From: Armatimonadota bacterium
GTDB taxonomy: Bacteria > Armatimonadota > UBA5829
Assembly: GCA_050948905.1 (NCBI GenBank)
Contig: JBMNES010000001.1
Location: 1,105,155-1,169,154, forward strand
Length of the DNA: 64,000 nt
Direction of reading: 5' to 3'
Positions within the stretch are counted from its first letter, which is position 1. Each line of letters opens with the position of its first letter. Shown here in pieces: positions 29,773 to 52,794 of the stretch. The notes under the pieces were generated by a model. The model worked only from the letters and a program-made list of their open reading frames with translations, searched no databases and had not been told where the DNA came from. Position numbers and translations under genes: made by a program.

Positions 29773-29802
29773 TTGACAATCGACTTATGTCAAGGGTAAG
29801 AT
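29773..29802 (+). promoter_or_regulatory. Sigma-70-type promoter candidate far upstream of giant gene 1
   Basis: TTGACA (29773-29778), 18-nt spacer, TAAGAT (29797-29802). It would give a leader of about 510 nt. Confidence 0.3.
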
Positions 29803-30315: not shown

Positions 30316-33300
30316 ATGAGAAAATCAGCATTTATATTATTGTTAGTCTTTGCAGCAGTCGCTTGCTCGCAAATGGCGATCGCCGCTGAGTTCCGTGCGT
30401 TCTGGGTTGATGCGTGGGGAACGGGTGCGATGAACCAGACGCAGGTGAATACGCTGCTCGGCACGGTCGGCACATCGCAGGGCGGTCAATTGCGCGACGC
30501 CAACTGCAATGCGATCGTAATTCAAGTGAGGCGCAACTGCGACGCCAACTACCCGTCGCAGATGGGAGAGCCGTATATGTCGGGGCTTACTCCTTCTAAC
30601 TTTAACGCCCTGCAGGCGGTTATAAATGCTGCTCACGACACCACCGGCGGCAAAAAACGCCTCGAAGTCCACGCGTGGATAGTCTCATTCCGAACCAGTG
30701 GCGGATTAGTGTACAGCCAGCACACCAGCACCCCTACCGCCAGCCTGACAGATTATGACAATTACTGGATTTCGCGCTTGAACACAGGCGCGGAAGTCGA
30801 CGACAAATCGATGGACCCTGGCCATCCCCTCGTGTCGGAATATACGGCCAATGTGGCTATGGATATAGTGACACACTTCGATGTCGACGCAATTCATTAT
30901 GACTATATCAGAACCGGCGGCAATGCCGAAGGCTACAACCCGACGAGCGTGGCTCGATATAACGACTTGAAGGGCAAGACAGGAACACCAGCCGCCACCA
31001 ATGCTGAGTGGCAGCAGTGGCGACGAGATCAGATTACTGCGGTTGTCAGGAAGATATACTCCAAAATCCAGGCGATCAAGCCGTCGGTTAAGCAGACTGC
31101 CTCTGTAGTCACCTGGAACCCCTCGCCGACAGCTTCAACCCGCGCCGCTTTCCAGGCGACCCGGCCGTATTATGACGTTTACAGCGACTGGGATAGCTGG
31201 CTTGAGGAAGGCATCGTCGACGCTGTAATGCCGATGACTTATTATAATAACGCCTCCCTGCCTACCGACTATAAGAAGTGGATGAACTACCAAAAAGACC
31301 GCCACCACAATCGACATATGTATATCGGGCCAGGCATCTATCTGAACTCGCTGGACAACTCTATTCTGCAGCTTCAGCTAACACGAGACCCATCCCCTGC
31401 CGGCAACTACGCGGAGGGCTATTGCGGCTATTCATATAGAGTTCCTTATATTAACGGAACCTGGGCGAATCAGTTCGGTGCACGGGTGAAGAACGAAGTA
31501 AACCCAACCTGGACCGATATCCCGGTGATGACCTGGAAGTCCAATCCGACAAAGGGGCATATCAGCGGCACTATCACCGATTATGCCACGGGTAAATGGA
31601 TCGACGGGGCGAAGGTGACTCTCAGCGGGGCTGCGTCGCGCACGCAATACTGTGACGGCACCGGGTTTTACTCTTTTATCGATCTCGCACCGGGAACATA
31701 CACTGTAACTGTACAAAAAACTGGCACTCCGGCTCGACCGAAGAGCTATCCGACCATGAGCAAAACGGTGACAGTCGCTATCGGCGCTGTGACGGGAAAT
31801 ATGTATGTCACGAACTTCCAACTCGGCGGGGATGTGCCTCCGCAGATAAGCAATGTTAATGCGACTAACGTGACCAACACTGCGGCGACCATAACCTGGA
31901 CCACCGACCCGTCCGGTACTACGCAGGTTGAATACGGTAAGACTACGAGCTATGGATCCTCGACCACGCTCAACAGCAGCCTCGTAACTTCGCACTCGCA
32001 GACCATCACCGGCCTGACACCGAAGACGCTGTATCACTATCGAGTGAAGTCGAACAACAGCAACGGTAACTCGGTTTCAGGTGATTATACGTTTACGACC
32101 AGCGGCCAACCAGCGATTTCGGGGGTTGCCACAGCTTCTGTGGGCGCGACATCGGCCACAATTATCTGGGCCACCGACGTTCCGGCGGATAGCAAGGTTA
32201 ATTATGGACTCACCACCGGTTACGGCAGCCAGAAGTCTGATGCAGCGCAGCAGACGACTCACAGTATCACACTGACCGGGCTTGCTGAGAATACTACTTA
32301 TAATTATCAGTGCGTATCGACCAACCCCTACGGGACAGCAACGTCGACCAACTTTACTTTCAAGACTCAGTCTGCTCCGACTGAGATAATCGTAGATAAC
32401 GTGGATGCGACCTTCACCGGGACCTGGAGCACAGGCACCGGAGGCTATAACGGAAACTACAGATATATTTATAACGGCAAATCTACTGCCACCTCTTCGG
32501 CGACATTCACGCCGAACCTGGCGGCCGGCCGCTATGATGTCTATGTCTACTACCCATCGCATACCAGCGCCACCACTAAGGCGCCGTTTACTATTTATCA
32601 TATGGATGGCACCACAGCCGCTTCGGTCAATCAGACGACCAATACAGGCACGTGGGTTAAGATTGGGGACAATCTGCGATTTGATGCAGGCACCAACGGT
32701 TATGTCACGCTGGGAATATACACCGGCGAAACTAACAAAACGAAATACGTCCTGGCTGACGCGGTCAAGTTTGTGTATGTTGGTGAGCTTGGGCCGCCTG
32801 ACCTTATCGTGAACAATGGTGATGCCGGCACCTCATTCACTGGCACCTGGAACGAGGGGACCTATGGCGGCGGTTACAATAATGATTACACGTTCGCCGA
32901 TTGTGCCGCCACTGTTACGGCTACATATAAATGGACACCGACGGTTCCTCAAACCGCTCTTTACGACGTATATTGCTGGTATAACACCGGCGCAAACAGG
33001 GCCACCGACGCAAACTATACCATTCGACACGCTGACGGCACCAAGTCGGTGCAAATAAATCAGCAGACCAACGGATCGCAGTGGGTGCTGCTGTCTTCCG
33101 GGTTGAAGTTCAACGCGGGCACAGGCGGATATGTGATGCTGGATAACAAGGCCAGCAACAACGTCGTGATCGCAGACGCCATCAGATGGGTCTATGCCGG
33201 CCCGGCGCCTGTGATAGACGACACACCGCCTACGATATCCATAAGCAACCCATCAGCATCGTTGACCAAGTCCGGCCCGATTACCTACACGGTCAACTAC

Positions 33301-34689
33301 GCCGACGATATCGGGGTCAGCGCGATCACACTGACCAGCGCAAACATAACCCTGCATAAAACCGGCACCGCCAACGGAATTGTGACGGTTTCCGGCACGG
33401 GCACTGCTTCGCGCACGGTCACTATTTCTAACATTAGCGGCGACGGGCTGATGAGTATATCCATCGCCGCAGGCACGGCAAGCGACGCTGCTGGCAATCT
33501 GGCGCCGGCTGCCGGCCCTGCACCTTCTTTCTACGTGGATAACACCAAACCGGAAGTCTCGCTCGATTCTCCGTCGACTGAGATGACAACTTCCGGCCCG
33601 GTGACCTATACGGTAACCTACGACGACGCTACTGCAGTGACTTTGACGAGCGCTAACGTTACGCTTAATAAGGCCGGCACGGCTAACGGAACTGTGGCTG
33701 TATCCGGCTCCGGTAACTCTTCGCGCACGGTCACTATTTCCAATATAACCGGCGACGGGACACTCGGCATTTCAGTGGCTGCGGGCACCGCCAGCGACAA
33801 TGCGGGCAACCTCGCCGATGCGGCCGGGCCGTCGTTGACGTTCGTTGTCGATAACACTGCTCCGAGCGTGGCCAACGTCACTGACGAGACTTACACTATC
33901 TCCAAGTCGAAGCTGAACGCATCGTGGGTGGCTTCTGATGCCGGTTCCGGGGTTGCAAATTGCGAATACGCAGTGGGCACAACACCTGGCGCTGCTAATA
34001 TCAAAGGCTGGACCGACGCAGGTAATGCGACTTCGGCTGAGATTACAGGACTTTCTCTGCAGGTCAACGGCGTCTACTATGTCTCTGTTCGCGCAGTCGA
34101 TAATGTCGGTCTGACCTCTGCGGTGGTCTCTTCTGCTGGGGTGCGTGTGGCGCAGCCAGTCGATAGTATTCCTGCGACCAGGGATCTGCCCAATGGCTCC
34201 GTGGTGTTGCTGCCTGCGAGGGTCGTGACTGCGGCGTTCGACGGCAGGTTCTATATTGAGGAGGACAACCGGGCGGCTGGTATTCAGGTGCAGAGCGCGG
34301 ATTCGACCGCGGTAGGCCAGTCTGTCTCGGTTTACGGCATACTCGGCATGAACGATGGCGAGCGCGCGATCACTAACGGCAAAATCGACCAGGCTGCTCC
34401 TGGCACGGCTATAATGCCGCTTATGGTGACAGGAAAATCTGTTGGCTCGGCGGGAAGTGCGGAACTATATAATATCGGACTTCTGCTGAGAACTGCAGGA
34501 AGAGTCACCAATAAAGGAGCCGGTTGGTTCAGTATAAGTGATGGATCGGGTGTGACCGTAAAGGTCTATTCCGGCAAAGCCGTCAACACCGGCGCGTTTG
34601 TCGGGGCGACCGGGATCAGTATCCTCGAAGGCAATCAGAGGGTTATTCGAACCCGTTTTGAGAGTGACGTGCGCGTATACGCGCCTTAA
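30316..34689 (+). CDS. Giant secreted mosaic protein 1: GHL10/DUF187-like head, CarboxypepD_reg-like, 2x FN3, 2x golvesin/Xly-CBD-like, 2x Ig-like repeats, shared C-terminal module
   Basis: ATG 30316 gives signal peptide MRKSAFILLLVFAAVACSQMAIA. Head: EFRAFWVDAWG...NCNAIVIQVRRNCDANYPS...HYDYIR...PMTYY. Then GHISGT..DGTGFYSFIDLAPGTYTV; FN3 (ATITWTTD...YHYRVKS); IIVDNVDATFTGTW...ADAVKFVYVG. Confidence 0.8.
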   Translation: MRKSAFILLLVFAAVACSQMAIAAEFRAFWVDAWGTGAMNQTQVNTLLGTVGTSQGGQLRDANCNAIVIQVRRNCDANYPSQMGEPYMSGLTPSNFNALQAVINAAHDTTGGKKRLEVHAWIVSFRTSGGLVYSQHTSTPTASLTDYDNYWISRLNTGAEVDDKSMDPGHPLVSEYTANVAMDIVTHFDVDAIHYDYIRTGGNAEGYNPTSVARYNDLKGKTGTPAATNAEWQQWRRDQITAVVRKIYSKIQAIKPSVKQTASVVTWNPSPTASTRAAFQATRPYYDVYSDWDSWLEEGIVDAVMPMTYYNNASLPTDYKKWMNYQKDRHHNRHMYIGPGIYLNSLDNSILQLQLTRDPSPAGNYAEGYCGYSYRVPYINGTWANQFGARVKNEVNPTWTDIPVMTWKSNPTKGHISGTITDYATGKWIDGAKVTLSGAASRTQYCDGTGFYSFIDLAPGTYTVTVQKTGTPARPKSYPTMSKTVTVAIGAVTGNMYVTNFQLGGDVPPQISNVNATNVTNTAATITWTTDPSGTTQVEYGKTTSYGSSTTLNSSLVTSHSQTITGLTPKTLYHYRVKSNNSNGNSVSGDYTFTTSGQPAISGVATASVGATSATIIWATDVPADSKVNYGLTTGYGSQKSDAAQQTTHSITLTGLAENTTYNYQCVSTNPYGTATSTNFTFKTQSAPTEIIVDNVDATFTGTWSTGTGGYNGNYRYIYNGKSTATSSATFTPNLAAGRYDVYVYYPSHTSATTKAPFTIYHMDGTTAASVNQTTNTGTWVKIGDNLRFDAGTNGYVTLGIYTGETNKTKYVLADAVKFVYVGELGPPDLIVNNGDAGTSFTGTWNEGTYGGGYNNDYTFADCAATVTATYKWTPTVPQTALYDVYCWYNTGANRATDANYTIRHADGTKSVQINQQTNGSQWVLLSSGLKFNAGTGGYVMLDNKASNNVVIADAIRWVYAGPAPVIDDTPPTISISNPSASLTKSGPITYTVNYADDIGVSAITLTSANITLHKTGTANGIVTVSGTGTASRTVTISNISGDGLMSISIAAGTASDAAGNLAPAAGPAPSFYVDNTKPEVSLDSPSTEMTTSGPVTYTVTYDDATAVTLTSANVTLNKAGTANGTVAVSGSGNSSRTVTISNITGDGTLGISVAAGTASDNAGNLADAAGPSLTFVVDNTAPSVANVTDETYTISKSKLNASWVASDAGSGVANCEYAVGTTPGAANIKGWTDAGNATSAEITGLSLQVNGVYYVSVRAVDNVGLTSAVVSSAGVRVAQPVDSIPATRDLPNGSVVLLPARVVTAAFDGRFYIEEDNRAAGIQVQSADSTAVGQSVSVYGILGMNDGERAITNGKIDQAAPGTAIMPLMVTGKSVGSAGSAELYNIGLLLRTAGRVTNKGAGWFSISDGSGVTVKVYSGKAVNTGAFVGATGISILEGNQRVIRTRFESDVRVYAP
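33220..33852 (+). repeat. Intragenic tandem duplication (two ~0.31-kb units encoding Ig-like modules) inside giant gene 1
   Basis: Unit A (~33220-33540) and unit B (33541-33852) share long near-identical stretches. Example: TCGCGCACGGTCACTATTTC occurs in both. At protein level, ITYTVNYADD..LTSANITLHKTGTANG aligns with VTYTVTYDD..LTSANVTLNKAGTANG. Confidence 0.8.
34150..34686 (+). other. Shared C-terminal module, copy in giant protein 1
   Basis: VVTAAFDGRFYIEEDNRAAGIQV...VGQSVSVYGILGMNDGERAI...YNIGLLLRTAGRV...FSISDGSG...GAFVGATGI...ESDVRVYAP. Aligns with the C-termini of giants 2-4. Confidence 0.75.
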
Positions 34690-34763
34690 ACTGGATTCAA
34701 CGGACGGAATCTTAAGATGGCCAGGATGGCAGCGATCGGGTTTGGCTTGTGGTAATGCTTTTG

Positions 34764-34796
34764 GCCCCGGACAGGTGTTGTGACGCCGTCCGGGGC
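34764..34796 (+). other. GC hairpin between giant genes 1 and 2 (no U-tract)
   Basis: GCCCCGGAC-15 nt-GTCCGGGGC. The ORF-track GTG start 34780 of gene 2 lies inside its loop. Confidence 0.35.
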
Positions 34797-34830
34797 TGAG
34801 CTACCGTGCTGGGTTCTGGAGGAGATTCAC

Positions 34831-37800
34831 GTGGCAAAGACGGTTAAGGGTAGTTTTATGGTTGGTGGGCGACAACTTAATTGGGCACTGCTCACCTGCC
34901 TTTTGGTTTTTGTAAGTGCGTGTGCTTGCGGGGCTTATGTTCAGGGTGACCCTGAGTTCAGGGCGTTCTGGGTGGACGCCTGGGGAGTGGGGGTGCTAAA
35001 CCAATCACAGGTGGATGACCTCCTCGGTGTGCCCGGCACGCCGCAGAAAGGCCAGATTCGCGAGGCCAACTGCAACGCGGTCATAGTGCAGGTGAGGCGC
35101 AACTGCGACGCCAACTACCCGTCCTCTATGGGTGAGCCTTATATGTCCGGGCTGTCTCCGGCTGATTTTAACGCGCTTCAGGCAGTCATTGATGCCGCGC
35201 ACGATACCACCGGCGGCAAGAAGAGAATAGAAGTGCATGCGTGGGTTGTTGCCTTCCGCACCAGCGGCGGGGCCCTATATGCCGCGCACTCAGACCCTCC
35301 CACCGGCAGTCTTATTCAACTCGACAACTACTGGCCCTCTCGTGACAACACCGGCGCTGAGGTAGGGGATAAGGCAATCGACCCCGGCCATCCGCTTGCT
35401 GCAGATTATACCGTCAACGTCGCTATGGACATCGTCACCAACTTCGATGTCGACGCTGTTCACTACGATTATATAAGATTCACAGCCAACAACCAGGGCT
35501 ACAATCCGACCTCTGTCGCTCGATATAACGCCAGATATGGTCTGACAGGCCAGCCTAATCCGAAAGATGAACAATGGAAGCAGTGGCGGCGGGATCAGGT
35601 CACGGCGGTCGTAAGAAAGACCTATGCCAAGATTCAGGCGGTGAAACCGTGGGTGCAGTTGAGTGGGTCGTTTGTCACGTGGAACCCGTCGCCGACCTCC
35701 TCAACCCGTGCCGGGTTTATGGGGACCAGGCCGTATTACGATGTGTATAGCGACTGGGATGCGTGGATTCAGGAAGGAATCATAGACGCAGCGGTCCCGA
35801 TGACATATTACAACTGGGCCTCACTTCCCTATGACTACTTAAGATGGATGAATTTCGAGAAGGACCGTCACGGTAACCGGCATATGTACATCGGTCCGGG
35901 AATATACCTGAACTCACGTGACAATGCCCTGATGGAACTCAATATGACGCGAGACCCGTCGCCGGCGGGCAATTACGCTCACGGTTTCAGCGGATACTCA
36001 TACAGGGTTCCTTATGACGGCGGCAACTGGAGCAACTTCGGCACGCGGCTCAAAAACGAGGTGACACCCGTTTGGGCGGATATCCCGGTTATGGATTGGA
36101 AGGCCTCTCCGACAAAGGGGCATATCAGCGGAACGGTGACTGTTAACGGCACCAACGCGTGGCTCGACGGCGCGACGGTGCAGATAACCGGGCCTGAGGA
36201 GCGGACTATGCTCACGGACGGCACCGGGTTTTACGCATTCATCGATCTTACTCCCGGAACCTATACAATCACCGTCAGCAAAACCGGCGCTGCCACGACA
36301 CAGCGCGTGGTCAACGTTGGAATCGGCCAGGTCGTCGGCAATATGTACGTGAACGATTTTTCGATCGGCAGCTCGCCGATCGTCTACGATGTGGAAGTTG
36401 TAAATATTACCGACAACACCGCTACGATAGCCTGGAAGACCGATCTTCCGGCATCTTCTCAGGTGCAATACGGGCCTACGGATGGCTATGGGCAGAACTC
36501 CGCGATCGATCAAACGCTTTCCACGTCGCATTTGGTCACTTTGACCGGATTGGCTCCGCATACTCTATATCATTTTAGAGCAGCATCAGCAAACGACGTA
36601 GGGACCGGATATTCTGGGGATTATACCTTCTCCAGCGGCTCGGGTCTATTGGCTTTGATTCCCACGCCGAGCAGCGGCGGAACGGTTACCGGCGGAGGTT
36701 GGAACGCAGCCGGAACCCTCGTGAGTGCTCGTGCTGAGACTTATAACGGCTTCTTCTTCCAGGGCTGGTCGACCACGCCTAACGCTGGCGGAATAATCTC
36801 CACCGCAAATCCTTATGAGTTCGAGATGCCGCTGGGGAATCTGACGCTTTACGCAATATTCCAATCAAGCGTTGGGGATATTATCGTGGAGTCTATGCCG
36901 GGTGGCAAAAACTACGATTGGTATCAGGACTTTAACTTCGCCGTCAGCAGCGTAAAAAGCGCCGCAATTGGCTGCACGCCAGGCATATCCAGCAGATATT
37001 CCGGCATCGGCGGGGTGGTCACCGACCGATCCGCGCACTATCGACCTGAAATTCCTGTGGATGGATCCTACGAGGTCTGGGCTACCTGGGCAAAATCGAC
37101 AAACGGCGGCTCTAATATCCGTCATACGGTATATCACAGGGACGGCGAGTTTACCAAGATTTTTAACCAGGCATCAAATGACAATAAATGGAATTATATA
37201 GGCGAGTTTCCATTCCTCGCCGGCGCGTCGGGCAGTGGGGTTGCCGAGCTAAAACAATGGGCCTCGGCGGCGCAATCGGGCAAGAGAATTATGGCTGATG
37301 CTGTCAAATGGGTTTACGTAGGCCCGTTTAAGGCCAAAAATCCGGAGCCTGCCGATAAATCAGTAGAAATCCCGCCGAGCAACCCGACTCTGAGTTGGTC
37401 ACCGGGAGGAACAACAGGGGCCTATGACGTCTACTTCGGCACCAGTCCGACCGAGATGGAAAAGGTCTCCAGTATGCAGACCAGCACCAGTATCAGCATG
37501 GATGTGCTTGCATCGACGACCACATATTACTGGAGAGTCGACTCGTTCTTCCTTGGCAAGACCACGACCGGGGATATCTGGCGGTTTACAACGGCGGCTG
37601 TGCCACCTTCTATTTCTAATGTGGAAGTTACAGCCATCACGTCATCCAGCGCAGTGATTACGTGGGATACCGACCAGCCTGCCACGGGCCAGGTCGTATA
37701 CGGCACTGAGCCTACCTACGGATCGACGACACCGAAAGATACTGGCCTAAAACGGTCGCATTCGTTCACATTGACAGGGCTGTCGGCTAACACGGTCTAT

Positions 37801-39444
37801 CATTTTAAAGTAAAGTCGGAAAACAGCCTGGCAATGAAAGCTGAGTCTTCGGATGAGTCGTTTGCTACCAAGCCGGAGTCTCTGACGTTCATAATTGACA
37901 ACCCCGAAGGCACGGCCACAGGCACATGGACTTCGATGACGGATACCGGTGGCTGGCCGGAGTCGGCGAGCCAGTACGTCTATTCGTTGAATATGCAATC
38001 GGCTACGACTGCATTTTTCACGTGGACGCCAAATATCCCCGTCACCGGGAAATATAACGTATACTGCTGGTATAAGGCCGGGCCAGATCGCACTACCTCG
38101 GCGAGATATACCATCACACACGCCAATGGGCAGATGGCGGTAGCGATTATAAATCAGGCGACATCTGGCGGACAGTGGGTTCCCATAGCGATTAACAAGC
38201 AGTTTACAAAGGGCACTTCGGGATATATTACGCTGACCAATAAGACCGGAGAGACTGACGGCGCAAGGAAAGTGATTGCCGATGCGATAAAATTCGAATA
38301 TTCGGAAATCGACAACGAGCCGCCGACGGTGCCGGAGAATCTGGTCGCTATAGCGGCTTCTACCTCCAGCATAGATCTAACCTGGAATGAGGCAGAGGAC
38401 GACTATGCGCTGGCGGGCTATAAGGTCTATCGCAATGGGCAGATCATCGGCATCACGCCCGATTCCAACTTTAACGACAAGGGGTTGGCCCCGAACACTC
38501 GCTACAGCTATAGCGTGCTCGCATACGACGCTACCGGCAATGAGTCGGAAAGATGTGCCCCTGTCGATAGATATACCCTGTCGCCGGCGGTCACTGCGGC
38601 CAGTATAACCTGCGATCGCAGCGTGGAAGTCACTTATACGACGCCTGAGTTCACATTCAGCAACCCTGGCCTCGGGGAAGGTAAAGTATCGACATATCGT
38701 TATGTATGGAACAATTCCCCAGGTCACACCTGGACAGATGCTGAGGCAAAGTGGGAGGATTCCACTAAAACCGTCAACGCGACGAGCGCCGGCGAGTGGT
38801 ATTTCCACGTTAAGGGCTACAATGGCGACGGAATATCGAGCGGGTCTGTGGACCTCGGGCCGTATTATTTTGGCGCAGGCATAAGCTCAATTGCCGCCGC
38901 CACTAATAACCCCGACGGCACCGCTGTGCAGATAACGGAATATATGATAATTTCAGCGACCTTTAGCGATAGGTTCTATATACAAGAGGAGAACAGGACC
39001 CGGGGCCTGCGGTGTGACGCACGCACGACGCTGCCGGTTGGCACGCGCGTGAAGGTCAAGGGCACACTGGCCACGTCGAACGGCGAGAGATATCTGACTA
39101 ATGTGGTCATTGTAGAATCTGCTGCGGGCACTGCGCCGAGGCCGTTTTTGCTGAGAACTAACGGGTTGGGCGGCGCTGCGCCGAACCAGTATACGCCGGG
39201 ATTTCCGAATGTTTCTCAGATATTCAATGCAGGACTTTTAGTTCGTGTAGCGGGTAGGGTCGAGTCGACCGGCGCCGGCTATTATGTTATCAGCGACGGA
39301 ACGGGCGGCACTCTTACCGTCCGTTCTACTAAAGCGGTAAGTGTGGGTGCGTTTATAGGCGCAACCGGGGTTGTGGTCCCGCAGGGTAGCGTCTGTGAGT
39401 TGCAGACTCGGTCGCAAAGTGATGTAACGGTCTACCTGCCGTAA
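34831..39444 (+). CDS. Giant secreted mosaic protein 2: GHL10/DUF187-like head, CarboxypepD_reg-like, FN3s, InlB-B-repeat-like, golvesin/Xly-CBD-like x2, shared C-terminal module
   Basis: GTG 34831 lies 6 nt after GGAGGAG (alternative ATG 34858). Possible lipobox VSAC. The head is roughly 70 percent identical by eye to gene 1 (PEFRAFWVDAWG...VRRNCDANYPS...HYDYIRF). GGTVTGGGW..YNGFFFQGWS. DIIVESMPGGKNY...ADAVKWVYVG. Confidence 0.8.
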   Translation: MAKTVKGSFMVGGRQLNWALLTCLLVFVSACACGAYVQGDPEFRAFWVDAWGVGVLNQSQVDDLLGVPGTPQKGQIREANCNAVIVQVRRNCDANYPSSMGEPYMSGLSPADFNALQAVIDAAHDTTGGKKRIEVHAWVVAFRTSGGALYAAHSDPPTGSLIQLDNYWPSRDNTGAEVGDKAIDPGHPLAADYTVNVAMDIVTNFDVDAVHYDYIRFTANNQGYNPTSVARYNARYGLTGQPNPKDEQWKQWRRDQVTAVVRKTYAKIQAVKPWVQLSGSFVTWNPSPTSSTRAGFMGTRPYYDVYSDWDAWIQEGIIDAAVPMTYYNWASLPYDYLRWMNFEKDRHGNRHMYIGPGIYLNSRDNALMELNMTRDPSPAGNYAHGFSGYSYRVPYDGGNWSNFGTRLKNEVTPVWADIPVMDWKASPTKGHISGTVTVNGTNAWLDGATVQITGPEERTMLTDGTGFYAFIDLTPGTYTITVSKTGAATTQRVVNVGIGQVVGNMYVNDFSIGSSPIVYDVEVVNITDNTATIAWKTDLPASSQVQYGPTDGYGQNSAIDQTLSTSHLVTLTGLAPHTLYHFRAASANDVGTGYSGDYTFSSGSGLLALIPTPSSGGTVTGGGWNAAGTLVSARAETYNGFFFQGWSTTPNAGGIISTANPYEFEMPLGNLTLYAIFQSSVGDIIVESMPGGKNYDWYQDFNFAVSSVKSAAIGCTPGISSRYSGIGGVVTDRSAHYRPEIPVDGSYEVWATWAKSTNGGSNIRHTVYHRDGEFTKIFNQASNDNKWNYIGEFPFLAGASGSGVAELKQWASAAQSGKRIMADAVKWVYVGPFKAKNPEPADKSVEIPPSNPTLSWSPGGTTGAYDVYFGTSPTEMEKVSSMQTSTSISMDVLASTTTYYWRVDSFFLGKTTTGDIWRFTTAAVPPSISNVEVTAITSSSAVITWDTDQPATGQVVYGTEPTYGSTTPKDTGLKRSHSFTLTGLSANTVYHFKVKSENSLAMKAESSDESFATKPESLTFIIDNPEGTATGTWTSMTDTGGWPESASQYVYSLNMQSATTAFFTWTPNIPVTGKYNVYCWYKAGPDRTTSARYTITHANGQMAVAIINQATSGGQWVPIAINKQFTKGTSGYITLTNKTGETDGARKVIADAIKFEYSEIDNEPPTVPENLVAIAASTSSIDLTWNEAEDDYALAGYKVYRNGQIIGITPDSNFNDKGLAPNTRYSYSVLAYDATGNESERCAPVDRYTLSPAVTAASITCDRSVEVTYTTPEFTFSNPGLGEGKVSTYRYVWNNSPGHTWTDAEAKWEDSTKTVNATSAGEWYFHVKGYNGDGISSGSVDLGPYYFGAGISSIAAATNNPDGTAVQITEYMIISATFSDRFYIQEENRTRGLRCDARTTLPVGTRVKVKGTLATSNGERYLTNVVIVESAAGTAPRPFLLRTNGLGGAAPNQYTPGFPNVSQIFNAGLLVRVAGRVESTGAGYYVISDGTGGTLTVRSTKAVSVGAFIGATGVVVPQGSVCELQTRSQSDVTVYLP
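38881..39441 (+). other. Shared C-terminal module, copy in giant protein 2
   Basis: IISATFSDRFYIQEENRTRGLRC...VGTRVKVKGTLATSNGERYL...FNAGLLVRVAGRV...YVISDGTG...GAFIGATGV...QSDVTVYLP. Confidence 0.75.
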
Positions 39445-39447
39445 GAT

Positions 39448-39680: not shown

Positions 39681-39700
39681 AGCTATTTTGGAGGATTATT

Positions 39701-42982: not shown

Positions 42983-43007
42983 CGTTTAATCAGGTGAGTT
43001 AAACCAA

Positions 43008-43046
43008 AGCCCGGGTCGTGCGAAGAGTGCGATCCGGGCTATTTTT
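43008..43046 (+). terminator. Rho-independent terminator after giant gene 3 (overlaps the stop of the convergent DUF1638 gene)
   Basis: AGCCCGGGTCG-11 nt-CGATCCGGGCT (one G-U pair), followed by ATTTTT. Confidence 0.6.
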
Positions 43047-43779
43047 GTGGCTGTTGTTTGAGGATCAGCTCGTCGAAGGATTCCGCGATGCTGCTGCCGG
43101 GCGGCACAATTAAAAAATCCTCGCTGTGCCAGTCCCCGTTGGCCAGTTTGCAAACCAGGGATAAGTCCCCCGCAAGCTCTGCGTATTCCCAGTTTTTGTC
43201 TGTGGCCAGGTTTTTTGTGAATTGACGATACTGCTCCGCGCATCCGATTCCGGTATCTATAAACGCCGCGCGGGTGTAGTTTGCATACCAGAGCTGTTCC
43301 TGTTCGATGAGATATTTAGCGTTATCTTCGCCGTATTTTTCGCAATACTCTTCATAGCGATCCGCGTAGTGTTTCGCATGGATGTCGATAAAGCCCTGGT
43401 CGACATCCCCTTCCTTGCGCTCAACCCAACCGGGGCTGTAGTAGTAGGTTCCGGGGTTTGCGGAGAACTCCTCGCTGTAGCGTTGCCGCGAGCCAAGAAA
43501 CGCCGTGATGCAATCGTGCATACGGATTATCACAAGAGGAACCGACCGCGCCATAACCTCCGCCGTGCCCCGGCTGCACAGTCCGTAACCGAGAGCTATA
43601 TAGTCATAGCCCTGTTCGCTGGCAGCATCAACGCGATTTTGAATAGTGGCTCGCAGTTCATCTGGTGTGTTGTGCAGCCCAAAAGCCAGCAGTTCGATGT
43701 TTATAACATGAGGACTATGCGCTGCCGCGAAATAAAACTCCCGCGCAAGTGCCTCGCAAGAAATTACTTTGATCTTCAT
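43039..43779 (-). CDS. DUF1638 domain-containing protein
   Basis: MKIKVISCEALAREFYF...LLAFGLHNTPDELR...YIALGYGLCSRG...LVIIRMHDCITAFLGSRQRY fits the DUF1638 pattern as I remember it. Confidence 0.65.
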   Translation of the reverse strand: MKIKVISCEALAREFYFAAAHSPHVINIELLAFGLHNTPDELRATIQNRVDAASEQGYDYIALGYGLCSRGTAEVMARSVPLVIIRMHDCITAFLGSRQRYSEEFSANPGTYYYSPGWVERKEGDVDQGFIDIHAKHYADRYEEYCEKYGEDNAKYLIEQEQLWYANYTRAAFIDTGIGCAEQYRQFTKNLATDKNWEYAELAGDLSLVCKLANGDWHSEDFLIVPPGSSIAESFDELILKQQPQK

Positions 43780-43884
43780 AACTGCATTTTATACGCGATA
43801 AGCGGCGTGGTCAATTGGGTTGTCGGTTATCGGTTTACAGTCAAGAACGGCGATCTCCGAATCGCCGCTTCGTGATTGGAAAAT

Positions 43885-43918
43885 GGCCGAGACGGAGATC
43901 GGCCACTACGTCAGTGTA
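43885..43918. repeat. Solo REP-like unit (variant subtype)
   Basis: GGCCGAGACGGAGATCGGCCACTACGTCAGTGTA. Closest to terminal array unit 7 (GGCCGAGGGCCGAGATCGGCCACTACGTTATGTA). Confidence 0.8.
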
Positions 43919-43930
43919 TCGCACATCGTA

Positions 43931-43970
43931 CATTATTTCCTGGCTTTCGCCCTTTTCGCGCTTTCGCGTT
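43931..43970 (-). repeat. Dispersed ~40-nt GCGAAAG-repeat element, copy B
   Basis: Minus strand reads AACGCGAAAGCGCGAAAAGGGCGAAAGCCAGGAAATAATG. Lies about 150-190 nt upstream of the DUF1638 gene, in the same orientation relative to that gene as copy A is to giant gene 1. Confidence 0.8.
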
Positions 43971-44048
43971 CTTCCCTTCCGCGCGATGTCTCCTCGAGAG
44001 GCGAAGGAATCGCGGCCCCTGTGCAGTAAATTTCATTGGAGCAATGCT

Positions 44049-45278
44049 ATGATTAGTACCCACGACAAACGAATTATCCGATCCCTCGCTGCTCAGGTCG
44101 CAGAAATCGCGGCGATGACTGTGCAGGAAGAGAAGCGGGCGATGTGGCGTGCCTTGAATGGTCTTAAACCCGACAGGCCTATGGTGATGATTGACCAGGT
44201 CTGCTGGAACGAGATGAACGTCGACGACGAACTTACCCTGCTCTGCGAGGACCCCGAATGCCGTGGGTACGAGGACTACCTTCGCAAAACGCTGTACCAG
44301 TGGCGGCATTTCCCAGTGGATATGGTCGTGGAACCGTTTGTGCGGGTTCCAAAAGCGATTCATAACACCGGGCTTGGGCTAGGCGCTGTAGAGGATATCG
44401 CCTGCACAGACCCGACGAGCGCGGTGGTGGGCCATAGCTATAAAAACCAGTTCGTTACCGATTCGGATTTGGACAAGATCAAGATGGCGCAGGTGACCTG
44501 CGACGAGGCAGAGACCGAACGCAGGCTTGGCGTCGCGCACGACCTATTCGACGGCGAGCTGGATATTTTTGAGCAGGGGCTGGACCCATACCTCTCTGTT
44601 TGGGACCCCATTTCGATGTTTATGAGCGTACAGGATGCACTCTACGCACTCATAGACCGGCCAGATTATATGAAAGAGCTGGCCAGGCGGATTGTGGCGA
44701 GTTATATGTCTATGCTCGACCAGGCGGAGCAGCAGGGATTGTTGTGTCACAGCCAATCGCTGATCCACTGCACCGGCGCATACACCGACGACCTTCCCGC
44801 CCCCGGTTTCGACCCGGCAAAGCCGCGCACGCAGGATATATGGATGTTCGGCCTGGCGCAGATGTTTTCGACGGTGTCGCCGGGTATGTTCGAGGAATAT
44901 GAAGTCGAGACGTCCATGCCGTTATTCGAGCGATTCGGGCTGGTTTATTACGGCTGTTGCGACCCGTTGGACTTGAAGATGGTTCAAGTGCGGAAAATAC
45001 CTAACCTGAGGAAGATTTCGATGAGTCCGTGGGTCGATGAACGGCGCGGCGCAGAGCAAATCGGCGGTGACTACGTCTACTCCCGCAAGCCCAACCCGGC
45101 GCTGCTGGTATCCTTTCACGAGGACGAGGTCCGAAAATACTTGCAGGATTCTGTTGATATATGCAAGCAATACGGCTGCCCGCTGGAGATTATTCTGAAG
45201 GACATCAGCACCGTCTGCTATGACCCGGCCCGGCTGTGGCGATTCGGTGAGATCGCTATGGAGGTGGTGGGGGCCTAG
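44049..45278 (+). CDS. Hypothetical 409-aa protein (possibly a URO-D-like/TIM-barrel enzyme; weak)
   Basis: ORF 43815..45278 trimmed to ATG 44049 (MISTHDKRIIRSLAAQVAEIA...), because the upstream part runs through the repeat elements. No firm motif. Confidence 0.55.
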   Translation: MISTHDKRIIRSLAAQVAEIAAMTVQEEKRAMWRALNGLKPDRPMVMIDQVCWNEMNVDDELTLLCEDPECRGYEDYLRKTLYQWRHFPVDMVVEPFVRVPKAIHNTGLGLGAVEDIACTDPTSAVVGHSYKNQFVTDSDLDKIKMAQVTCDEAETERRLGVAHDLFDGELDIFEQGLDPYLSVWDPISMFMSVQDALYALIDRPDYMKELARRIVASYMSMLDQAEQQGLLCHSQSLIHCTGAYTDDLPAPGFDPAKPRTQDIWMFGLAQMFSTVSPGMFEEYEVETSMPLFERFGLVYYGCCDPLDLKMVQVRKIPNLRKISMSPWVDERRGAEQIGGDYVYSRKPNPALLVSFHEDEVRKYLQDSVDICKQYGCPLEIILKDISTVCYDPARLWRFGEIAMEVVGA

Positions 45279-46012: not shown

Positions 46013-46162
46013 AATCGAAATTAGGATAACACCTCAGCGAGTTCATGTCACTTGAAACTTATTACATAAATCTATCACGCATCAATACACTGTAATAGTA
46101 TAGATTTACATAATAAGCGGGCTGCCGGATAGTCTGATACTGCTGATATTGCCATTTTGTCA

Positions 46163-46192
46163 TTGACTTTCGCCGGAACCTGAACATATACT
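46163..46192 (+). promoter_or_regulatory. Sigma-70-type promoter candidate for giant gene 4
   Basis: TTGACT (46163-46168), 18-nt spacer, TATACT (46187-46192), in an AT-rich 240-bp intergenic region. Confidence 0.4.
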
Positions 46193-46254
46193 GAAGAATC
46201 TTTTAGTGTGCCTGTATTGCAATAGCTATCGATTATTTTGTGGGGGAGGAAGCA

Positions 46255-49200
46255 ATGCGTAAGCCTGTATCTTTGCTGGAGTTATGGCGCGCCGCTGCAA
46301 GGTGTAGCACTTTTTTGCTTTGTGCTGCATTTCTGTTGATGTGCGCTTCGTCTGTGTTTGCTCTGGTGGCAGAGGATGGATTGGTAATAGGAGATGAAGA
46401 TCTACCTCAAGTAGGCGGAACTCCGCTGCCAGAGAAAAAACTCACGCCCGAGGAAATCGCCGCTGCAGAGGCCGAGGCGGAAGCCTCGTCGGTGGCGGCC
46501 AACTATGTCTATCCCGTTCCGTTATATGGTCAGTGTTGGAGCCCGTGGAGATATAATCAACTCGGCACCTGCAATCTCACCATCTGCGATGCGGGATGCG
46601 CGATGTGCAGCACGGCTATGGTTTTTTCATATCACGGTGTAAGTTGCGACCCAGCGTCACTTAACACCTGGTTAAGAAACAACGGAGGCTACTCAGGGGG
46701 CTGCAACCTTATCTGGAGTGTAGCCGCCAATTACTCCAGTAAGGTAAAGTTTGTGGCAAGCTATAACTGGAACACAGTGGCTGCCAATCTTACCATAGTC
46801 AATCAGCACCTTGATGAGGGCAAGCCGCTTGTGTGCGAGGTTCGCAACAGCAGCGGCGGGATGCACTTTGTTACCATCACCGGGCGCAATGGTTCGACCT
46901 ATTACATTAACGACCCCGGCTACGGCGACAGCACGACCCTCAACGCTCGTTACGGATCCCCGGCGGCTGCTTGTTACGGCATCCGCATTTATGACAAAAC
47001 AGCTCCTCCTCCTCCGACCTGGAACGCGACTTACGTCAATCAGTCGTATCCGTCTACCATGACCGCAGGAGAAACCGCAGTTGTATGGGCGGAGTTTAAG
47101 AACACGGGCACCGGAACCTGGACACACAGCGCTACCTGCATAGGCACCTCCAGCCCGGCCAACCGCGTTAGCCCGTTCTACAACTCGGCAAACTGGATCA
47201 ACAATACCAGACCTTCCGATGTAGACCAAACCTCTGTGGCAACTAATCAGACTGGACGGTTTTCATTTATCCTTAAAGCTCCGGCCACGCCGGGTACCTA
47301 TACCGAAAAGTATAAACTGGTGCAGAGCAACTCGACCTGGTTTGGGCCGGAGATCACGTGGACAATTACTGTCAAGGCGGCTACGGGCAATATAACCGGC
47401 ACCGTTCGCAATTCATATAATAACGATCCGGTGTCGGGTGCGACTGTCGCAGTAACCGGCGGACCGACGGCTACTACCAACGCTTCCGGCGTGTATACAA
47501 TTTCGGGCCTTGCGCCCGGCGCAAAGACGCTGACCGTCAGCAGGGCAGGTTTTGAGACCCAGACCGCAAACGTCACTGTGACGGCAGGGGCGACTGCAAC
47601 TCAAAACTTCACACTTATCTCAACAGATAAGACAGCGCCGACTGTTCCGACAAACCTGACCGCTAACGCGACGTCTCCGAGCCAGATTAATTTGGCCTGG
47701 TCGGCGTCGACGGACTCCGGCGGGGCTGGTTTGGCTGGATATATAGTCTACCGGGGCAGTTCTGAGATTGGTCGTACGACTTCAACTTCGTATTCGGATA
47801 ATGGCCTGACATCGAACACCAGTTATAGCTATACTGTCAAAGCCTATGACAACGCTGGCAACATCTCAGGCGCATCGAACACGGCGACTGCCACAACCCA
47901 GATAGCGGCCGTCCCGATCTTCCAGGACGGGTTTGCTAATTTGAACTATTGGCAGGCGCTGGTCGAGGGCTCAATGCCCGCCCCTAACCCGGCAGTGCTT
48001 GTGGATGATAACCACAATCACGCTCAGTTCCCGGGTGTTAAGGCGATCAAAACCGTGGATAACGCCAATGGCTCGCAGGGCTGTTTGACTGGTCACACAT
48101 TCGACATACCGTTTGGCGCAGCCAAGTTCGAAAGCTGGTTCTTTGACGGTTCCGGCCTTGGATATATCGGTCAGTTCGAGGAAGGTATTGAGGGCTGGGC
48201 AGGTTTGCCGAACTCCTGGGCTGTCTTTGATACGATCTCAGGCGGCACCAGCGGTAAGTGCCTGCGAATTAAGGACGGCGGATGGCAGGGCGGCGCTTTT
48301 AAAGAGTTCACCAGCGGTTTTGCCGTGGGTGAGGCCTATACGCTTAAACTGAGCATGAGACTAGCCAACGAAGGCACCTGGGGCACTGCTCCATACATCT
48401 TCGTCAAGTTCCTGAACAGTTCCGGTGGCGTCATCGGCTCCGAGAACACCAAGGCTATCACACTGGACAATGCGTGGCATACATATACCCTGACCGGCGC
48501 CGTGCCTTCTGGCGCAACAAAAATACAAATCGGCCAGAATATGTATCTCAATGCCACCAAAGATTACTATTACTATATGGACGATGTCTCGTTCATCACT
48601 TCGACCGATGTCAAAGCGCGCAGCAGCAGGCAGGGCTTGCAGGTGCGATGTGTGGATAGTAATGGTTCTCCTAAGGCTATCTATTTCCTCGGCACTTACA
48701 ACGCTTCCCCTGGCTCGCTTGGCTCTTACAGCGGCGGTTACTACAAGGTCTGTGGGACTGGTTGCACAGGCTGGTATTGGCCGCTTGCAAACTGCAAGGA
48801 GCGCACACCGGGATGGCATAAGTTCACCATAGACTTCACACCATACACGGGCGCCGGCAACGAGGTTAAGTACTATATTGACGGCACGCTGGTCGGCTCT
48901 GTTGAGAGGACCCCGGATACGCAGGATATCGGCCTGAATATGGTTGCTTACGGCTTCCACTATCGGGTCAATAACCCGGGCTGGTTCGACGACTGTGCGA
49001 TGTATGCTGCTCCTCCGGTTGCGCCGGTTATGGGCGCGGCCCAGACTCTGTCTACCACTTCCATTCGATGGAAGGTAACTGACAAATCCAATAACGAGAT
49101 CGGGTTCAAGGTGGTTAACGCGGCCCAGGCTATCGTCGCCTCAGCGCCTGTTGCCAACGGCTCCGGCAGCGTGGTTAACATGGACGAGACAGGCCTTGTT

Positions 49201-50208
49201 CCGAACACGGCTTATACTCGAACGGCCAAGGCATTTAACGGTTCACTCGACAGCTCGCCGACTGCGGCAGCTACCAGGTGGACACTGTCCGTTCCGCCGA
49301 GCAAGTCTAACGTGACCAGTAACCGTGCGGAGGGCTCTACTTCCGCATCGCCTGACATTACGTTTACCGCGGTCGGCGGTTTCAAGAGCGGAACGTTGGC
49401 CAAATATCTCTACGCCTGGGACACCAGCCCGACTCATACCTGGACTGGCTCTGAGGAGGTTTGGGATTCTGGTGATCTGATTCTCGAAGCCCCTGCGACA
49501 GGTCAATATTACCTGCACGTCAAGGGCTACAACGGTGAGAACGTCGAAAACGGCGCTCTTGACCTTGGACCTTACGGCTATCAGGCTACTCCTGAAGCCA
49601 GTAAGATCAGCGACCTTTGGCCTCTTGAGGACGGTGAGGTTCGCTGGCTGCACGGCAAGATCGTCACTGCTAAGGTTGACGGTGGGTTCTATATGGAGGA
49701 ATCCGACCGGACTGCTGGCGTGCTGGTTATCTCTAACGCCAGCGTGCAACCTGGCGACATAGTGAACGTGGAAGGCACACTTGGCCTTAACGATTCCGGC
49801 TCTCAGAGGCTGTTGACCGCATCTTACGTTGAGAAGGACGGCACTGCCGCTGTTCCTGGTGCGCTGTTTATGGTCACCAGGTCGGTTGGTGGTGAATCTC
49901 CGTCCGAGTTCACCCCTGGCTCGACTCTGACAAATGGCCTGTATAACGTCGGCTTGCTGGCCAGATTGTCTGGTCAGGTTGTGAGCAGGGATATATCCGA
50001 CCCTCAGAACAAAGTCTTCTACCTCGACGACGGCGCTAAAGTCAGCGACGGTAACCAAGGCTTTGGCATTCTGGTTCGGTGTGGCAGTGTGACGCCGCCT
50101 GCAAACGGCATGGTAGCTGTGACAGGTGTAATCACTCTCGAAGCGATCGGCAAGAATTATGTTCCGGTGCTGGTCATTCGAGACGAGAGCGACCTTTCTC
50201 AGCCATAA
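46255..50208 (+). CDS. Giant secreted mosaic protein 4: papain-fold C39-like cysteine peptidase head, NBR1-type Ig, CarboxypepD_reg-like, FN3, concanavalin/LamG-like with inserted CBM4/9-like module, shared C-terminal module
   Basis: ATG 46255 follows GGGGGAGGA. Signal peptide FLLCAAFLLMCASSVFA. Peptidase: LYGQCWSPW...ICDAGCAMCSTAMVFSYHG...GMHFVTITG...YYINDPGYG. Ig: WNATYVNQSYPSTMTAGETAVVWAEFKNTGTGTW. Also GNITGTV...ASGVYTISGLAPGAKTLTV. Confidence 0.75.
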   Translation: MRKPVSLLELWRAAARCSTFLLCAAFLLMCASSVFALVAEDGLVIGDEDLPQVGGTPLPEKKLTPEEIAAAEAEAEASSVAANYVYPVPLYGQCWSPWRYNQLGTCNLTICDAGCAMCSTAMVFSYHGVSCDPASLNTWLRNNGGYSGGCNLIWSVAANYSSKVKFVASYNWNTVAANLTIVNQHLDEGKPLVCEVRNSSGGMHFVTITGRNGSTYYINDPGYGDSTTLNARYGSPAAACYGIRIYDKTAPPPPTWNATYVNQSYPSTMTAGETAVVWAEFKNTGTGTWTHSATCIGTSSPANRVSPFYNSANWINNTRPSDVDQTSVATNQTGRFSFILKAPATPGTYTEKYKLVQSNSTWFGPEITWTITVKAATGNITGTVRNSYNNDPVSGATVAVTGGPTATTNASGVYTISGLAPGAKTLTVSRAGFETQTANVTVTAGATATQNFTLISTDKTAPTVPTNLTANATSPSQINLAWSASTDSGGAGLAGYIVYRGSSEIGRTTSTSYSDNGLTSNTSYSYTVKAYDNAGNISGASNTATATTQIAAVPIFQDGFANLNYWQALVEGSMPAPNPAVLVDDNHNHAQFPGVKAIKTVDNANGSQGCLTGHTFDIPFGAAKFESWFFDGSGLGYIGQFEEGIEGWAGLPNSWAVFDTISGGTSGKCLRIKDGGWQGGAFKEFTSGFAVGEAYTLKLSMRLANEGTWGTAPYIFVKFLNSSGGVIGSENTKAITLDNAWHTYTLTGAVPSGATKIQIGQNMYLNATKDYYYYMDDVSFITSTDVKARSSRQGLQVRCVDSNGSPKAIYFLGTYNASPGSLGSYSGGYYKVCGTGCTGWYWPLANCKERTPGWHKFTIDFTPYTGAGNEVKYYIDGTLVGSVERTPDTQDIGLNMVAYGFHYRVNNPGWFDDCAMYAAPPVAPVMGAAQTLSTTSIRWKVTDKSNNEIGFKVVNAAQAIVASAPVANGSGSVVNMDETGLVPNTAYTRTAKAFNGSLDSSPTAAATRWTLSVPPSKSNVTSNRAEGSTSASPDITFTAVGGFKSGTLAKYLYAWDTSPTHTWTGSEEVWDSGDLILEAPATGQYYLHVKGYNGENVENGALDLGPYGYQATPEASKISDLWPLEDGEVRWLHGKIVTAKVDGGFYMEESDRTAGVLVISNASVQPGDIVNVEGTLGLNDSGSQRLLTASYVEKDGTAAVPGALFMVTRSVGGESPSEFTPGSTLTNGLYNVGLLARLSGQVVSRDISDPQNKVFYLDDGAKVSDGNQGFGILVRCGSVTPPANGMVAVTGVITLEAIGKNYVPVLVIRDESDLSQP
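49597..50205 (+). other. Shared C-terminal module, copy in giant protein 4
   Basis: IVTAKVDGGFYMEESDRTAGVLV...PGDIVNVEGTLGLNDSGSQRLL...YNVGLLARLSGQV...FYLDDGAK...VAVTGVI...ESDLSQP. Confidence 0.7.
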
Positions 50209-52738: not shown

Positions 52739-52794
52739 CTTATGTTATATGATACACTCTCTCGACGAGGTTGTGGGAGATTTCTATGAAATAT

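Follow-up and report, generated by a model that had tools for sequence, protein, structure and literature searches.

Four giant modular proteins with GHL10 and cysteine peptidase heads, putative peptidoglycan hydrolases of an uncultured Armatimonadota bacterium

The four giant genes and their modules

The window analyzed in this study, a stretch of 64,000 nucleotides, belongs to an uncultured Armatimonadota bacterium of the type seen in anaerobic digesters and contains four genes, here called G1 to G4, that encode very large mosaic proteins. G1, G2 and G3 follow one another in tandem and open with a head of the GHL10 family; G4 lies further downstream and opens with a cysteine peptidase head. 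All four continue into long tails built from related modules. Their positions are as follows:

30316-34689, forward strand: G1, 1457 amino acids (aa)
34831-39444, forward strand: G2, 1537 aa
39701-42982, forward strand: G3, 1093 aa, a divergent paralog
46255-50208, forward strand: G4, 1317 aa

An earlier reading of this DNA, made from the letters alone (the sequence-only reading), had described four open reading frames (ORFs) of these lengths with signal peptides, and inspection of the ORFs and their N-termini bears this out. The predicted masses are 117-166 kDa, and GGAGG-like Shine-Dalgarno sequences stand 5-12 nt upstream of the four starts, in a weaker form (GAAGGG) in G1. Signal peptides were called by eye and are termed signal-like here: each N-terminus has a basic n-region followed by a hydrophobic core, as in G1 (MRKSAFILLLVFAAVACSQMAIA/AEF). 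The modules of each protein, in residue numbers, and the nucleotide positions of those discussed below are:

G1, N-terminal half: signal-like 1-23; GHL10 24-400; CarboxypepD_reg 416-495; fn3 509-596 and 605-684
G1, remainder: Golvesin_C 690-822 and 831-958; Ig-like repeats 966-1182; Ig-like 1185-1275; tandem OB 1280-1457
G2, N-terminal part: signal-like 1-38; GHL10 41-417; CarboxypepD_reg 432-501; fn3 about 520-600; InlB B-repeat-like 612-679
G2, middle: Golvesin_C 723-827; fn3 840-905 and 927-1013; Golvesin_C 1022-1156; fn3 1168-1240
G2, C-terminal part: Y.Y.W..H.WT module about 1255-1345; tandem OB 1350-1537
G3, first part: GHL10 38-385; CarboxypepD_reg 397-469; fn3 481-549; weak Golvesin_C-like 607-700
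G3, second part: fn3 722-806; Y.Y.F..H.WTG module 815-912; Ig-like 915-1010; first OB barrel only 1025-1093
G4, first part: signal-like 1-37; Peptidase_C39_2 89-221; N_BRCA1_IG 279-373; CarboxypepD_reg 380-454; fn3 465-542
G4, second part: unassigned lectin-like region 545-935; fn3-like 936-1009; Y.Y.W..H.WTG module 1010-1125; tandem OB 1126-1317
30385-31515, forward strand: GHL10 TIM-barrel head of G1 (Pfam 128 bits; phmmer match to 5OQ2)
32383-33189, forward strand: Golvesin_C pair of G1 (Pfam E 4e-55)
34153-34686, forward strand: C-terminal tandem OB domain of G1 (by a hidden Markov model from our alignment A1 and by alignment)
46519-46917, forward strand: cysteine peptidase head of G4 (proposed catalytic Gln93, Cys115, His204 and Asp220)
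49630-50205, forward strand: C-terminal tandem OB domain of G4 (the sequence modelled with AlphaFold2, AF2)

The proteins are rich in Thr and Ser and are largely built of Ig-like and fn3 modules, and their tails can be aligned with one another at 25-31% identity. As had been proposed, CarboxypepD_reg and fn3 modules are common to all four, with Pfam matches that include CarbopepD_reg_2 and Pur_ac_phosph_N; the CarboxypepD_reg-type match in G1 stays below threshold (CarbopepD_reg_2, 25.5 bits against a curated cutoff of 32.2). The Ig-like stretch 966-1182 of G1 consists of two repeats that are 64% identical. Other parts of the proposed common tail have a narrower distribution. Golvesin_C-like modules are well supported in G1 (185.8 bits, two copies) and G2 (133.5 bits, two copies) but not in G3 (22.4 bits against a cutoff of 31.6), and Pfam gave no Golvesin_C (PF25275) match in G4. 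Similarly, the Y.Y.W....H.WTG.E module occurs in G2, G4 and, as a Y.Y.F variant, G3, but is missing from G1.

The Golvesin_C modules of G1 are probably carbohydrate-binding, judging from their alignment with residues 893-1039 of a Paenibacillus xanthan lyase (6F2P; E 1e-14). We take this lyase module to be a CBM84, one of the carbohydrate-binding module (CBM) families. Papers on enzymes of P. nanensis describe CBM84 as xanthan-binding. The middle region of G4 (residues 545-935; 47887-49059, forward strand) had no Pfam match, and a PDB profile search with it was also empty; in five of nine close G4 homologs the same region is matched by CBM_4_9 (best E 5.5e-6). Neither the whole proteins nor their unassigned segments gave Pfam matches, at E up to 1, to LysM, SH3, SPOR, PG_binding, CW_binding, CWB2 or AMIN.

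Predicted catalytic heads and their exchange on the shared tail

The assignment of the first three heads to GHL10 is confirmed by Pfam PF02638, with 128.1, 122.4 and 116.0 bits for G1, G2 and G3, respectively, against a cutoff of 27.9 (E 1e-33 to 1e-37), and residues 24-344 of G1 match the structure of Cwp19 (5OQ2; phmmer E 1.4e-17). The sequence-only reading knew of no biochemically defined substrate for this family, a statement that is outdated, as two members are known to cut the glycan strands of peptidoglycan. The C. difficile enzyme Cwp19 acts on peptidoglycan as a lytic transglycosylase (PMC6016235) and has a solved structure, 5OQ2, whose closest structural neighbour is the domain of PgaB that processes poly-N-acetylglucosamine (PNAG) (PMC5765458), and DigH (YddW) of E. 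coli hydrolyses denuded, that is peptide-free, glycan strands at the septum (PMC12288456).

The alignable conserved pocket residues of Cwp19 (W36, Q77, W127, R132, D195, D196, Y197, S250, Q295, Y297 and G328) were mapped onto the heads. Nine of the eleven (W, Q, W, R, D, Y, S, Y and G) are kept in G1 and G2, including the Asp-Tyr pair at the end of strand 4, for which Asp196-Tyr197, inside HYDYIR, is the candidate catalytic pair of G1. The motif previously given as [HL]DYIR reads LDYIR in G3 only; in G1 and G2 it is HYDYIR. More generally, D-Y-x-R is a subtype feature of these GHL10 heads, and D-D-Y-F was found in 0 of the 123 family heads.

The likeness to Cwp19 combines 9 of 11 pocket residues in G1 and G2 with a common layout of signal peptide, N-terminal GHL10 TIM-barrel and non-catalytic positioning modules. 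Cwp19 itself, however, is a 703-aa protein anchored by three CWB2 repeats, with D-D-Y-F at the end of strand 4 and a role in autolysis of its own wall, whereas the giants described here are two to three times larger, carry D-Y-I-R, use CarboxypepD_reg, fn3 and Golvesin_C modules and end in the tandem OB domain. DigH, a GHL10 member about 26% identical to the G1-G3 heads, cuts strands that amidases have already stripped; in contrast to the giants, it is a 439-aa single-domain lipoprotein at the division septum, with D-D-Y-F, no modular tail and no paralog array.

For G4, the anticipated peptidase and NBR1-type Ig domain were both recovered by Pfam, as Peptidase_C39_2 (PF13529; 39.2 bits against a cutoff of 24, residues 89-221) and N_BRCA1_IG (residues 279-373). 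Gln93, Cys115, His204 and Asp220 are unchanged across 11 homologs and stand in canonical order. Three of them (Cys, His and Asp) coincide, on alignment, with catalytic residues in the C39 domains of ComA and LahT. The AF2 model of this head is poor (pLDDT 60.5); in it, a helix begins at the Cys, and the His and Asp occupy consecutive strands. The top matches in a Foldseek search with this model were cysteine proteases (AvrRpt2, PCAT1, SpeB and 3ERV), at E 2e-3 or weaker and TM-scores of 0.2-0.4, and indicate no more than a generic papain-like fold. The C39 peptidases of ATP-binding cassette (ABC) exporters (ComA, PCAT1, LahT) share the Gln/Cys/His/Asp arrangement, are the best PDB sequence matches of the G4 head and are among its top fold matches. 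A bacteriocin-processing C39 peptidase (PF03412) was nevertheless rejected for G4, with 16.3 bits against a cutoff of 22 and no ABC transporter domain. Because G4 lacks the ABC part and has a signal peptide of its own, it is not a leader-peptide processing enzyme. A homolog search with the head alone added only seven proteins, mostly small C39_2 proteins of about 326-338 aa. In two surveys of phage lysins, Peptidase_C39_2 is named as one of the catalytic domains.

Swapping of heads on a shared tail, proposed from the four genes, proved real when related proteins were searched and their N-terminal heads re-scanned. Homologs of the G4 tail share N_BRCA1_IG, CarboxypepD_reg, fn3, the 390-aa middle region, the Y.Y.W module and the C-terminal domain, and the heads that replace C39_2 on it are Amidase_2 (about 55 among the matches listed), Amidase_3 and Peptidase_M23; the N-terminal placement of these alternative heads was confirmed by re-scanning P0125, P0167 and P0144. 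Judged by their domain matches, the alternative heads among the matches listed are all of peptidoglycan hydrolase classes. One relative, P0197 (1242 aa, a complete gene inside its contig), combines both kinds of head in a single protein, with Amidase_2, N_BRCA1_IG, CarboxypepD_reg, Golvesin_C, fn3 and GHL10, and its GHL10 module is of the same D-Y-I-R subtype (ELRAFWVDAWG, MDYIRY). By analogy, this fusion of amidase and GHL10 would mirror the logic of DigH, in which peptides are stripped first and the bare glycan is cut next. Golvesin_C also occurs on other Amidase_2 proteins (P0169, P0170, P0180, P0222, P0230, P0232 and P0234); the related xanthan lyase module (6F2P 893-1039) sits on a polysaccharide lyase, whereas Golvesin_C sits here on GHL10 and in the relatives on Amidase_2.

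These head swaps in relatives are, in our opinion, the strongest functional clue to the array. They recall autolysins and phage endolysins, in which Amidase_2, Amidase_3, M23, cysteine peptidase and glycan-cleaving heads are likewise exchanged on a common tail, with P0197 as the bifunctional case. Unlike those enzymes, the giants measure 1100-2300 aa, are chromosomal in metagenome-assembled genomes (MAGs) labelled Armatimonadota or PVC (the Planctomycetota-Verrucomicrobiota-Chlamydiota group), and have no LysM, SH3, SPOR, CW_binding or PG_binding.

C-terminal domain, relatives and genomic surroundings

The last 190 aa or so of G1, G2 and G4 form a conserved module, which in 99 of 137 matching relatives lies at the very end of the protein. 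The claim of a C-terminal module shared by all four therefore holds in full for these three proteins; G3 stops halfway, after the first OB barrel, and its orthologs at loci L002 and L019 stop there too. We considered whether G3 is a broken pseudogene and ruled this out, as the same 1093-aa form with half of the C-terminal domain recurs at L002 and L019.

An AF2 model of the G4 domain, built with the 27 sequences of alignment A1, shows two beta-barrels at high confidence (pLDDT 95.4, pTM 0.90). Foldseek returned OB folds only, the best being tandem-OB single-stranded DNA-binding proteins (1SE8, 2CWA), followed by RPA and the anticodon-binding domains of aminoacyl-tRNA synthetases, at E 7e-4 and weaker and TM-scores of 0.25-0.4; against viral structures it gave generic OB proteins only, with a phage lipoprotein on top (TM 0.43). 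No Pfam or NCBIfam model covers the domain, and across the 27 A1 sequences only weak matches to OB-fold families appear, such as tRNA_anti-codon (6/27) and RMI2 (4/27). Likewise, Pfam and NCBIfam gave no match in the last 190 aa or so to type IX secretion system (T9SS) C-terminal domain, PEP-CTERM, LPXTG, dockerin or SLH models. The module resembles dockerins and T9SS C-terminal domains in closing the sequence of many secreted enzymes that are unrelated to one another; it differs from them in its predicted fold, a double OB barrel rather than an EF-hand pair or a beta-sandwich.

A profile search of 1.84 billion representative proteins retrieved 5,040 clusters with an E cutoff of 1e-3, of which 3,841 also passed a cutoff of 1e-10. 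The domain is nearly always terminal, on host proteins of 184-2252 aa, and the heads in ten sampled members and several neighbours include LVIVD repeats, subtilase S8, Amidase_3, beta-helix/NosD, CBM_4_9 and a PF10091 Glycoamylase with CBM30. Its taxonomic spread was assessed from 75 GHL10 loci (described below) and one named protein: among complete GHL10 ORFs it is present in 17 of 23 labelled Armatimonadota, in all six unlabelled ones and in none of 43 labelled Planctomycetota or Verrucomicrobiota. Giants with Planctomycetota labels (L009, L028, L037, L043 and others) end instead in paired dockerin-like D-x-D-x-D-G-D-V-D motifs, and those with Verrucomicrobiota labels (L011, L032, L042, L056, L067 and others) in a domain finishing '...QRFYRVRL.P'; the dockerin-like and '...RFYR' C-termini look lineage-specific.

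Since the terminal module sits on many unrelated enzymes and, among the loci studied here, only at those of Armatimonadota type, we regard it as a probable lineage-specific localisation domain that does not determine the substrate. The earlier argument that a common tail implies a common glycan-plus-peptide substrate loses force accordingly, as the module is also found on subtilases, beta-helix proteins and a putative glucoamylase (PF10091). The last of these, at L024 (6718-9630, reverse strand), adjoins a GHL10 giant and carries PF10091 Glycoamylase, CBM30 and the tandem OB domain, with no peptidoglycan hydrolase domain. The idea that tandem-OB genes adjoining GHL10 genes are themselves peptidoglycan enzymes was discarded: they are fragments of GHL10 giants, carry PF10091 and CBM30, or belong to no family.

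Turning to the history of the array, the 32-nt run shared by G1 and G2 (30526-30557 = 35092-35123) was confirmed, and the heads, estimated at roughly 70% identity, are 69% identical on alignment. The conclusion drawn from these observations, a recent or homogenised duplication, does not hold. An alignment of G1 with G2 that spans 850 residues gives 52% identity for the proteins and 57% for the DNA, codons agree at only 43% of identical residues, about the level that codon bias alone would give, and the 32-nt run sits in the most conserved patch of the pair. In addition, G1 and G2 have separate orthologs in a related MAG, GCA_964494345.1, where the same array stands in the same order on a 437-kb contig (loci L002 and L003), with identities of 93% (G1), 91% (G2), 90% (G3) and 92% (G4). 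Saturated synonymous sites and separate orthologs thus point to an old duplication with no sign of homogenisation, and gene conversion or recent duplication between G1 and G2 was ruled out on the 43% codon identity and the orthologs of each.

Copy number varies between these close relatives: L002 (5821-13951) has two tandem C39_2 giants of 1321 and 1317 aa, 80% and 92% identical to G4, and the window has one. At the other end of the same 437-kb contig, L004 (9893-19627) holds a second tandem GHL10 pair, both members with the tandem OB domain and with heads 66-68% identical to those of G1 and G2.

The G1-type architecture is not rare. More than 390 proteins have it, the named ones mostly from Armatimonadota MAGs, and annotation pipelines call them 'family 10 glycosylhydrolase' or 'YddW (UPF0748)'. 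Scanning species-representative genomes with an alignment of GHL10 heads (A3) yielded 75 loci, all in uncultured MAGs, many of which come from anaerobic reactors or digesters. The label is Armatimonadota for 21 loci, Verrucomicrobiota for 24 and Planctomycetota/Phycisphaerae for 24; four are unlabelled and two have implausible labels. Tandem GHL10 giants (at least two) occur at 20 of the 75 loci, and in a Phycisphaerae-labelled MAG (L044, 353-4408) one 1352-aa ORF has two GHL10 heads. The labels of L008 and L023, 'Bifidobacteriaceae' and 'Coriobacteriia', look wrong for these contigs, which are likely mislabelled or mis-binned; L023 carries the Armatimonadota-type C-terminal domain despite its label.

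The other features of the window that bear on the array are listed below:

29773-29802: promoter-like site upstream of G1
43008-43040, forward strand: GC-rich hairpin of 14 bp followed by a T run, directly 3' of the G3 stop
46163-46192: promoter-like site upstream of G4
50946-54221, reverse strand: CUT1-type ABC importer, two permeases and a binding protein (Pfam), directly downstream of G4
58715-60421, forward strand: AMIN + Amidase_3 protein (AmiC/CwlD-like), 568 aa, an ordinary wall amidase apart from the giant family

The hairpin is the likely point at which a transcription unit of G1, G2 and G3 ends; none of similar strength was reported for the G1-G2 or G2-G3 gaps. Together with the promoter-like sites, this suggests from sequence features that G1, G2 and G3 may be co-transcribed, with G4 apart. 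The interval between G3 and G4, given as about 3.3 kb with three unrelated genes, measures 3.27 kb and holds a DUF1638 gene, an ORF without a family and a TtcA-like PP-loop gene. The ORF (43815-45278, forward strand) has no Pfam or NCBIfam match and lies beside the DUF1638 gene (43039-43779, reverse strand), and the pair is kept between G3 and G4 in the related MAG; its true start is probably further downstream, because the L002 ortholog is called as 409 aa. Upstream of the array, a 308-aa protein with a signal-like N-terminus (26236-27162, forward strand) has no family match. An Rfam scan of the window gave no match, and no phage genes were found among the annotated neighbours.

The binding protein of the importer best matches NgcE, which is specific for N-acetylglucosamine (GlcNAc) and diacetylchitobiose, with E 2e-95 to TIGR03851 and 320 bits, below the cutoff of 399.65. 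The position of the importer is kept in the related MAG, and it is possible that it takes up products of G1-G4.

Peptidoglycan and the alternative explanations

On the strength of the domains, the conservation of residues, the head swaps and the fold and spread of the C-terminal domain, we lean, with slightly better than even confidence, towards the view that G1-G4 are peptidoglycan hydrolases of giant, modular build on an exoenzyme chassis common to the lineage, and that they probably scavenge foreign or dead wall. Among the substrates suggested by the sequence-only reading, peptidoglycan has gained support, from the Amidase_2, Amidase_3 and M23 heads on the same tail and from the P0197 fusion. 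In such a scheme, the proteins would be exported by the Sec system; the GHL10 TIM-barrel of G1, G2 and perhaps the divergent G3 would cut the backbone of N-acetylmuramic acid (MurNAc) and GlcNAc, and the papain-fold cysteine peptidase of G4 would cut stem peptides or cross-links. The middle modules (CarboxypepD_reg, fn3, Golvesin_C and the CBM_4_9-like region of G4) would serve as spacers and glycan-binding elements, and the tandem OB domain would most likely keep the enzymes at the surface of the producer or on a partner, without defining the substrate. Foreign or dead wall would then be digested outside the cell, and GlcNAc-containing products could enter through the adjacent NgcE-like importer. 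The array belongs to a known kind, that of GHL10 wall hydrolases and modular lytic enzymes with shuffled heads; what is new is the giant architecture, the D-Y-x-R subtype, the use of Golvesin_C and CBM-like modules in place of wall-binding repeats, and the unannotated tandem OB domain.

Several observations weigh against this reading, and many of them favour a different one, in which the GHL10 giants are nutritional glycanases for another polymer (chitin or chitosan, a PNAG- or Pel-like polymer, a xanthan-like exopolysaccharide or an alpha-glucan) and G4 is an unrelated secreted protease that happens to use the same chassis. In the heads themselves, the G1 and G2 pockets lack one Asp of the D-D pair and have Met in place of Cwp19 Gln295; G3 keeps only about 5-6 of the 11 pocket residues, with several replaced; and D-[YF]-x-R stands in 116 of 123 family heads where Cwp19 and DigH have D-D-Y-F, so that the subtype is unlike the peptidoglycan-active enzymes. 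The nearest structural neighbour of Cwp19 is, moreover, the PNAG domain of PgaB, and a third GHL10 protein, DogH of Deinococcus, has been reported to act on starch, cellobiose and melibiose, a claim based on a reducing-sugar colour assay alone (PMC9967864). The tail adds further doubt: Pfam reports no classical wall-binding module in any of the four proteins, the spacers and the C-terminal domain are generic and thus say little about substrate, and Golvesin_C has just one relative of solved structure, a module at the C-terminus of a xanthan lyase, which points to other polysaccharides. Around the genes, the NgcE-like importer suits chitin oligomers or another GlcNAc polymer equally well, glycosidase-like tandem-OB proteins such as the PF10091 and CBM30 protein stand beside GHL10 genes, and in the window a terminator and three unrelated genes split G4 from G1-G3. 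We nevertheless consider a different polymer, the main rival, somewhat unlikely. P0197, albeit a lone example from one assembly, joins a MurNAc-L-Ala amidase to a GHL10 module of the same subtype; Golvesin_C is found repeatedly on Amidase_2 proteins; both of the GHL10 enzymes that have been characterised rigorously act on peptidoglycan; and the alternative heads on the G4-type tail, among the matches listed, all fall into peptidoglycan hydrolase classes.

If peptidoglycan is the substrate, it could still be the wall of the producer, with the giants as housekeeping autolysins for cell separation or turnover and the tandem OB domain as an envelope tether. DigH and Cwp19 do work on the wall of their producers, and the related MAG preserves the synteny with housekeeping genes (FolC, TtcA-like). 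This role is decidedly improbable, however, given that an ordinary AMIN + Amidase_3 amidase is already encoded at 58715-60421, that Pfam finds no SPOR or AMIN targeting modules in the giants, and that the number of C39 genes differs among close relatives (one against two). Several giant paralogs per genome, tandem arrays at 20 of 75 loci and CBM-like modules are also traits of exoenzymes and not of the divisome. We give very little credence to the view that these are structural surface proteins, S-layer-like, sheath-like or adhesive, with heads that are degenerate or only bind. Their great size, Thr/Ser-rich composition and Ig-like and fn3 modules would fit it, as would the pocket residues lost in G3, but the candidate catalytic residues are kept in G1, G2 and G4 and across about 120 homologs. 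A weak NCBIfam match of the CarboxypepD_reg/Ig region of G4 to an anammox S-layer glycoprotein covers generic beta-sandwich modules only (45 bits against a cutoff of 1400).

The ecological setting is compatible with scavenging of peptidoglycan. Anaerobic enrichments with purified peptidoglycan as the sole substrate enriched uncultured Armatimonadetes and Verrucomicrobia (PMC7511781), and MAGs labelled Armatimonadota or Verrucomicrobiota carry the GHL10 giant family; literature searches on Armatimonadota and necromass, and on PF02638 or YngK, gave no useful result. As a broader and tentative proposal, to which we assign less than an even chance, the tandem OB domain might be a hitherto undescribed surface-retention or sorting module typical of Armatimonadota, equivalent in function to the dockerin-like and '...RFYR' ends of the other lineages. 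It would mark an exoenzyme chassis of about 5,040 clusters, with heads that range from peptidoglycan hydrolases and glycosidase-like domains to subtilases and beta-helix proteins. If true, the module would imply a partner, which could be a receptor or else a machinery for secretion or attachment, and the chassis would deploy a full extracellular toolkit of glycan cutters, amidases and endopeptidases to feed on the walls of other bacteria.

Necromass contains a large pool of organic carbon and nitrogen in the form of peptidoglycan, of which the anaerobic degraders and their enzymes are poorly known. The GHL10 giant family provides concrete candidates for anaerobic peptidoglycan degradation and, if they are confirmed, the biochemistry of GHL10 would extend to a large D-Y-x-R subtype. 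The unannotated C-terminal domain family may, in turn, explain how exoenzymes of Armatimonadota are positioned. Should the heads act on another polymer, they would still represent an abundant class of glycanases in three poorly cultured phyla.

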